NCBI GenBank assembly: GCA_964016885.1
Contig: OZ024744.1
Coordinates: forward strand, 135,718,001 to 135,782,000
Reading direction: 5' to 3'
Length of the DNA: 64,000 nt
From: Eledone cirrhosa
Lineage: Eukaryota
A model generated the notes under the pieces. That model made no database searches, was not told where the DNA came from, and saw only the letters and a program-made list of their open reading frames with translations. This document shows positions 38,076-38,728 of the stretch, one piece after another. The position numbers and the translations under genes are program-made. Position 1 is the first letter of the stretch; every line of letters begins with the position of its first letter.

Positions 38076-38127
38076 TAAGTATGCATGTATACGTACATAC
38101 ATATATGTATACAGACGTACAGTGGCA

Positions 38128-38207
<80 letters not shown>

Positions 38208-38568
38208 TACATATGCATACAGGTACACATACATATATGCACATATCAGTTTAGCGGACGCTTATTATAACGCCGCTTTGTTCAATATGCAAATTAGGCT
38301 GCTCAGCCGTTAATTTTCATAAGGAAAGTATATACTTTCGAACGTTCAACTATCTAGCAGATGGGTAAACGGTGCTGATGATAGCTAACAAGCTTGAAAC
38401 TAGTACATCGTTCCTGTATCAGTGTTGAACAAAAAGGTGACGTGGTTGCCTTAACACCGTATGGCATAAATTCAGGCTATTCAGTTTGTTTACAAACAAA
38501 CAAAGCGGCGTTATAATAAGCGTCCGCTAAACTGATGCGTGCATATATGTATGTGTACCTGTATGCAC

Positions 38569-38615
<47 letters not shown>

Positions 38616-38728
38616 TGCTACTGTACGTCTGTATACATATATGTATGTACGTATACATGCATACTTACATTTAAGTAAGTGCCATACTAAGAGTGAGAAA
38701 TGAAATTTCGTTTTCATTTTATTTCAAC
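38076..38728 (+). mobile_element. Stem-loop insert in (TA)n with hammerhead in the loop
   Basis: Arms 38076-38282 and 38499-38667 are inverted. The loop is ~216 nt and there is a 61-nt unpaired 3' extension. Confidence 0.8.
38368..38412 (+). ncRNA. Minimal type I hammerhead ribozyme
   Basis: AACGGUG-CUGAUGA-U-AGCU-aaca-AGCU-U-GAAA-CUAG-UA-CAUCGUU. Helix I is 7 bp, the core is intact, helix III is the palindrome ACUAGU and the cleavage triplet is GUA. Confidence 0.85.

Follow-up and report, generated by a model that had tools for sequence, protein, structure and literature searches.

Does the intact hammerhead motif that lies between two long inverted arms in a TA-rich region of the Eledone cirrhosa genome belong to an active self-cleaving non-coding element, as its initial annotation proposed, or is the whole structure better explained by the insertion of a mobile element? 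The motif is located in a stretch of 64,000 nucleotides which was analysed in full and is referred to here as the window. The window is animal DNA, with LINE reverse transcriptases, C2H2 zinc-finger exons and a DDE transposase. The named matches of the zinc-finger sequences are all from animals and, among the listed matches covering at least 80% of the query, a protein of Octopus sinensis has the highest identity (62% over 91%), a faint pointer to a cephalopod. A scan for bacterial promoters, whose model is bacterial and not applicable to animal DNA, found fewer sites than in shuffled sequences.

We conclude that the 653-bp element carrying the motif is probably a 5′-truncated non-coding insertion of a Penelope-like retrotransposon (Penelope-like element, PLE) with a hammerhead of the kind found in the Hydra clade, which targets (TA)n. 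Hammerheads in truncated PLE insertions within TA repeats are a class already known in animal genomes, where such motifs are reported to number thousands per genome (PMC4209133). Taken alone, the motif matters little. It is useful as a marker, identifying palindromes of the TA array as PLE insertion scars and setting their polarity, and its loop-less helix III and U/U-closed helix II make it a simple construct for asking whether this variant cleaves.

The hammerhead motif and its closest relatives

Two features describe the ribozyme:

38368-38412, plus strand: type I hammerhead, identified by descriptor scans, shuffles and alignment to the Rfam model HH9, with the cut predicted after A38405
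38360-38420, plus strand: possible extended helix I, from the HH9 alignment, with distal pairs between 38360-38364 and 38415-38420

The motif at 38368-38412 is a genuine hammerhead. Helix I is open-ended and formed by 38368-38374 and 38406-38412 (7 bp, one of them G-U), the core consists of CUGAUGA (38375-38381) and GAAA (38396-38399), and the GUA cut site satisfies the NUH requirement. Helix III is the palindrome ACUAGU (38399-38404), which has no loop and is followed by A17 at 38405. The core, helix I, palindromic helix III, GUA site and cut after 38405 had all been placed correctly in the initial annotation. It had overlooked the base of helix II. This helix (38382-38395) reads AGCU-AACA-AGCU and thus has 4 bp, with a flanking U on each side; the resulting U/U closure occupies the place of the G10.1-C11.1 pair that closes the helix in the canonical and minimal consensus.

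Chance does not readily produce such a motif. A strict descriptor matched once in the real window and in none of 300 shuffles, while a loose descriptor gave three matches against a null mean of 0.013 (4 of the 300 shuffles with a match), the null windows being dinucleotide-shuffled in 2-kb blocks and scanned on both strands. An Rfam scan of the whole window at the gathering score returned no match, and an E-value scan of the 653-bp element gave mostly microRNA models matching TA repeats. The best hammerhead model on the 216-nt loop between the arms was Hammerhead_HH9 (RF02275), to which the motif aligns over 77 of 77 positions, helix III lacking a loop; the score of 18.5 bits (E 0.031) stays below the cut-off of 52.

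The U/U closure takes the motif out of the canonical consensus, in which, as reported for the minimal form, G10.1-C11.1 is highly conserved (PMC4209133), but not out of the range of PLE variants. The pattern CUGANGA-U-stem II-U-GAAA is present in 14 of the 25 families that File S2 of PMC8557442 lists for the Hydra clade (26 rows, one family appearing twice). Decay at the base of helix II was considered as an origin of the U/U and is rejected in view of this proportion; the motif looks intact for its type. In the same source helix II is mostly of 4 bp with a 4-nt loop, several families build helix III from ACU and AGU, and nearly all insert in (TA)n.

The closest known systems are these Hydra-clade PLEs (Craig et al. 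2021, PMC8557442), among them Hydra-1_Ajap, Penelope-1/2/5_HM and Penelope-13_HM. As described there, they share with the locus the (TA)n target, the placing of a type I hammerhead close to the 3′ end and the ACU/AGU helix III, and their helix II likewise has 4 bp and a loop of 4 nt and lies between CUGANGA-U and U-GAAA; for Penelope-13_HM an inverted 5′-truncated copy is also noted. All the Hydra rows listed there have a helix III loop of 1–3 nt. The Eledone motif has none, so that a dimer should be needed. The element also differs from the described Hydra-clade PLEs in having no coding region and in carrying a microsatellite inside its arms, and its hammerhead differs, by eye, from that given for the octopus family Hydra-1_Obim.

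The minimal hammerheads and the variants with a small helix III described for metazoan PLEs (Cervera and de la Pena 2014, PMC4209133) likewise have an extra nucleotide after A9 and a palindromic helix III. Rows for Drosophila willistoni and Hydra in Fig. S3 of that paper, whose PDF columns are scrambled, seem to share the extra U before GAAA and the A cut site. Compared with the published minimal consensus, the motif lacks G10.1-C11.1, its helix I is longer (7 bp) and its helix II shorter (4 bp). The earlier assignment holds: the motif is a PLE-type hammerhead whose palindromic helix III lacks a loop, and hammerheads of this class are reported to act as dimers (PMC4209133; PMC6765202). Compared by eye and unscored, the motif would work like a Hydra-type PLE hammerhead. 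The proposed link of the element as a whole to the Hydra clade is drawn from the ribozyme pattern and the (TA)n target only. A literature search on hammerheads confined to cephalopods found a single relevant work, the bioinformatic study of Craig 2021.

The label "minimal" given to the motif at the outset fits only loosely: the palindromic helix III has 3 bp, and helix I possibly has a distal part. In the HH9 alignment, helix I has 6 bp followed by an internal loop with U at position 1.7 (38412), and loop II of the motif ends in A, a geometry like that of HH9; a contact between U at 1.7 and the last A of loop II is a known tertiary interaction (PMC11875169). Among 20,000 random flank pairs the distal helix arose in 4179 (21%) and the helix plus both loop features in 129, the latter features having been chosen post hoc. 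The extended helix I is a lead only.

This geometry bears on the possibility of a non-autonomous ribozyme element, retrozyme or SINE-like, which would itself be mobile and active through loop-loop contacts of an extended helix I and dimer cleavage in trans. The perfect core and the 77-position alignment speak for it, as do reports of solo retrozyme monomers derived from PLE pseudo-LTRs (bioRxiv 2026.07.22.740005). Non-LTR retrozymes as described by Cervera and de la Pena (2020, PMC7229834) are also non-coding, of low GC, equipped with a type I hammerhead and probably mobilised by PLEs. They are defined, however, by a tandem repeat unit of 170–400 nt, which was not found around the motif; the search returned a single motif, lying outside any tandem array and accompanied instead by an inverted arm and a tail. 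The frequency of the distal helix in random flanks also weighs against this explanation, and we regard it as improbable.

Architecture and origin of the 653-bp element

The element is composed of the following parts, the last line giving its host array:

38076-38131, minus strand: outer arm of the inverted copy, an alternating purine-pyrimidine degenerate microsatellite, 55/56 identical to the reverse complement of 38612-38667
38132-38201: (TA)35 run in the inverted copy
38203-38282, minus strand: inner arm of the inverted copy, matching the reverse-complemented right arm in 77 of 80 columns
38283-38498, plus strand: single-copy "loop" of the main copy, 5′-truncated at 38283, with no second copy in the window
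38499-38571, plus strand: inner arm of the main copy, ordinary sequence to about 38535 and purine-pyrimidine alternation beyond
38572-38611: (TA)20 run in the main copy
38612-38667, plus strand: outer arm of the main copy, ending within a predicted small hairpin
38668-38728, plus strand: unpaired 61-nt tail and right insertion boundary, with no other copy in the window
37197-44755: (TA)n array of about 7.5 kb, host of this insert and of three others of like layout

Inverted arms containing TA runs flank the hammerhead as first described, and the ribozyme is single-copy within the window; the left arm holds (TA)35 and the right arm (TA)20. The left insertion boundary is the left end of the outer arm, inverted and main copies meet head to head at 38282/38283, and the arms (38076-38282 and 38499-38667) are separated by a spacer of 216 nt. 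The output of a repeat finder on the window was dominated by TA repeats. Alternation of purines and pyrimidines is 0.56 in 38499-38535 and 0.94 in 38536-38572; over the whole degenerate tract (38536-38667) it is 0.89–1.0, compared with 0.43–0.56 elsewhere. The element is asymmetric. Since the arms are not terminal and the tail occurs on the right only, the unit amounts to a longer, tailed main copy with an inverted copy attached head to head.

This asymmetry disfavours a foldback DNA transposon or a MITE, bounded by long terminal inverted repeats, in which the hammerhead would be incidental. Such an element would account for long inverted arms on both sides and for the TA context. Its arms should be terminal, yet a 61-nt tail follows them here, an arrangement that recurs in four other inserts with unrelated arms, and it leaves the orientation of the motif toward the tail unexplained. 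We consider it very improbable. A foldback artefact of sequencing or assembly, or a motif arising by chance, is hardly credible: TA arrays are hard to assemble and two neighbouring palindromes are nearly perfect (261/262 and 324/325 columns), but the present arms differ by 15 TA units and by four substitutions, all transitions, in 136 non-TA columns, and the strict descriptor found the motif in 0/300 shuffles. If the four differences post-date insertion and the octopus rate given in PMC13282606 applies, the insert would be roughly 4 million years old. A-to-I editing was considered as their origin and rejected, the four changes lacking one common direction.

The hammerhead, inverted arm, tail, TA target and shared polarity are all observed, and together they argue for a PLE insertion. 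PLE insertions are described as 5′-truncated; in many cases an inverted truncated copy adjoins the 5′ end, and one end carries a tail of 30–40 bp. Their hammerheads sit in a pseudo-LTR and insertion is biased to microsatellites (PMC8557442). Head-to-head junctions and the capture of unrelated DNA are also known from them (PMC3846280). The hammerhead points toward the tail, as expected of a sense 3′ motif, and the 653 bp have no linked reverse transcriptase and GIY-YIG frame, as expected of a truncated copy. A Pfam scan of 146 reading frames of the window (20 + 126), from which frames in the LINE copies, one duplicated block, low-complexity sequence and the region beyond 55800 were omitted, identified no PLE reverse transcriptase or GIY-YIG domain. 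From the layout, the single-copy part at 38283-38498 would be the 3′ untranslated end or pseudo-LTR of the PLE. Other features fit less closely: the tail has 61 nt compared with the published 30–40, no target-site duplication is readable in the TA array, and the distance from the cut to the element end (323 nt) exceeds that in the Hydra consensus sequences examined, except if the microsatellite part represents captured flanking DNA. Searches of the window, of phages, of plasmids and of prokaryotic genomes (the last with a 31-nt exact pattern) gave no homologous copy, and consequently neither covariation nor a sequence-based family link. By eye, a 27-residue frame that ends at helix I resembled the tail end of an endonuclease; this reading was discarded, the frame having no Pfam match, no useful Atlas match (best 0.80) and 0 matches among 1.84 billion proteins.

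The arrangement can be accommodated in a simple scheme. In vitro, the anole PLE protein is reported to nick and extend both target strands and to start reverse transcription internally, at two neighbouring positions; the sequence between these positions forms the tail (PMC11167929). At the Eledone locus, a PLE protein supplied in trans would have nicked both strands of a (TA)n run, and reverse transcription would have been primed at two nearby sites of one RNA, 38728 and 38667, the end of the 38612-38667 arm marking the second start. The longer cDNA, from 38728, would have yielded the main copy up to 38283 with the ribozyme included; the shorter, from 38667, would have halted at 38499 to give the inverted arm, and the two would have been joined head to head. 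The degenerate microsatellite (38536-38667) would already have been present on the template, most likely as flank read through from the donor insertion. The ribozyme would be cargo: in a tandem parent element it may have acted by double-hammerhead cutting via the palindromic helix III, possibly aided by the PLE protein. If the inverted arm was made during insertion, the long RNA stem is a by-product of that event. The stem, taken originally as a structure that displays the ribozyme, is better read as a scar of DNA insertion, an inverted PLE copy.

Two successive events of the same class could also have produced the arrangement: a first, head-to-head PLE end, with arms of 56 bp around a TA run and a tail of 61 nt, would later have received within that TA run a second PLE fragment (38203-38571), the one with the hammerhead. 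Two neighbouring palindromes do carry a central TA run (40926, 42056), the TA runs of the element are unequal (35 and 20 units), and the distance from the cut to the start of the microsatellite would be 130 nt, near the span in the Hydra consensus sequences examined. The outer arms should then be older, yet they differ in 1 of 56 columns compared with 3 of 80 for the inner arms, too few to decide; moreover, the degenerate alternation is alike on both sides of the (TA)20 run and reads as one tract. Nested insertion is possible though unlikely, and a single PLE insertion remains our preferred explanation.

Predicted folding and cleavage

The ribozyme had been described as free to fold and, being single-copy and unpaired, as the best candidate for activity in the window. 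Folding predictions suggest otherwise. In a model that ignores tertiary energy, the predicted monomer fold engages C3-U4-G5 with the helix III strand and so buries the core, and the hammerhead-compatible fraction is 0.002–0.005 in five contexts. Two other motifs of the window with perfect cores have fractions of 0.008 and 0.007 and, since these are equally low, the value does not mark the focal copy as dead. The single-copy state is itself a handicap, as a lone copy has no partner in cis for dimer cleavage. A two-strand double hammerhead is predicted at -20.8 kcal/mol, compared with -19.0 for two monomers; the best predicted dimer, an inactive form pairing via the CAAGCUUG palindrome, lies at -21.7 kcal/mol, 0.9 below the active one.

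Activity would be favoured by the perfect core, the family-typical helix II and the greater predicted stability of the dimer relative to two monomers. Lunse et al. have reportedly worked on PLE hammerhead dimers. PLE hammerhead motifs are described as not cleaving as monomers and cleaving at a low level as dimers (PMC4209133). For the anole PLE hammerhead, cleavage is reported only with the protein, the ribozyme is dispensable for insertion in vitro, and RNA-seq ends are absent at its site (PMC11167929). The lone copy is probably silent in the cell and may cleave weakly in vitro once dimerised. In our judgement, the odds that a dimer mimic would cleave detectably in vitro are close to even and those of a cellular role for this copy well below even.

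A more radical proposal treats all 653 bp, with the microsatellite arms, as one non-autonomous element present in many copies. Its RNA would fold into a long rod exposing an extended hammerhead that depends on dimerisation, and cleavage in the cell would follow when two ribozymes meet, through a pair of transcripts or through the PLE protein. We hold this to be quite doubtful. If true, TA arrays would be home to a foldback retrozyme, and two-site PLE priming could be tested directly at the genomic level on the two-ended inserts of the window.

Other inserts, hammerheads and surroundings in the window

Four more inserts in TA runs have an inverted arm and a one-sided tail (about 19905-20278, 40664-41228, 41732-42492 and 44035-44240); compared within the window, they share no sequence with the element described above. 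A relaxed scan allowing up to two core mismatches and a U3-A8 variant was applied to all five main copies: three have a hammerhead-like motif oriented toward the tail, and none has one in the opposite orientation. Between 0 and 2 of 1000 shuffles per element gave a match, a null that is optimistic because the relaxations were picked after the motifs had been seen. Over the whole window the relaxed null averages 0.5 matches in 30 shuffles, and one real match within a zinc-finger repeat is probably due to chance. The scan returned no motif in either direction for the inserts at 41732 and 44035; in the former, CUGAUGA and GAAA are intact and helix I is, by eye, broken.

The inserts at 40664-41228 and 41732-42492 are head-to-head palindromes matching in 261/262 and 324/325 columns, with short central TA runs (40926 and 42056), tails of about 40 and 110 nt, and degenerate hammerheads at 41001 and 42230. 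They are either very young PLE inserts or foldback artefacts. The insert at 19905-20278 has its inverted arm and tail in a TA run, faces leftward and carries a U3-A8 variant hammerhead (one core mismatch) with a palindromic helix III, while that at 44035-44240, where the hammerhead scan was empty, has a short inverted arm and a tail of about 80 nt on the left.

The focal hammerhead is not the only unpaired one. Two further unpaired type I motifs with perfect cores, at 53681-53747 (plus strand) and 3489-3419 (minus strand), have a nearly identical 8-bp helix I, long unrelated helices II and a 4-bp palindromic helix III that differs by paired changes. They probably belong to one PLE family or to two related ones. 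Within a TA-flanked island (8966-9377), the plus-strand sequence 9131-9165 contains CUGACGA, an extra U, a perfect 6-bp helix II and GAAA, with degenerate helices I and III. Another TA-flanked island is bounded by a 135-bp direct repeat (32992-33126 and 33488-33622, 98.5% identical), includes CUGAUGA and no complete motif, and resembles a partial tandem with pseudo-LTRs.

The minus strand carries C2H2 zinc-finger exons, or what remains of them, at 8077-8274, 17951-18217 and 25812-26408; should the focal element be part of such a zinc-finger transcript, its ribozyme would be antisense. LINE reading frames are present at 28944-32195 (plus strand) and 34200-36791 (minus strand). The first (1083 aa) contains endonuclease and reverse transcriptase domains with a PHD finger match directly after the latter, and several further copies of its 3′ end, which has TGA repeats, lie beside TA runs. 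A broken piggyBac-like DDE transposase occupies several frames at 47064-48555 (plus strand). The segments 1-3388 and 9484-12853 form a 3.4-kb inverted duplication, 99.2% identical, with a 6-kb spacer. Finally, 57538-64000 is a satellite with a unit of 83–90 bp and a strong skew of G over C, a short stretch of which is similar to a LINE copy at 56364-56452 read on its reverse strand.
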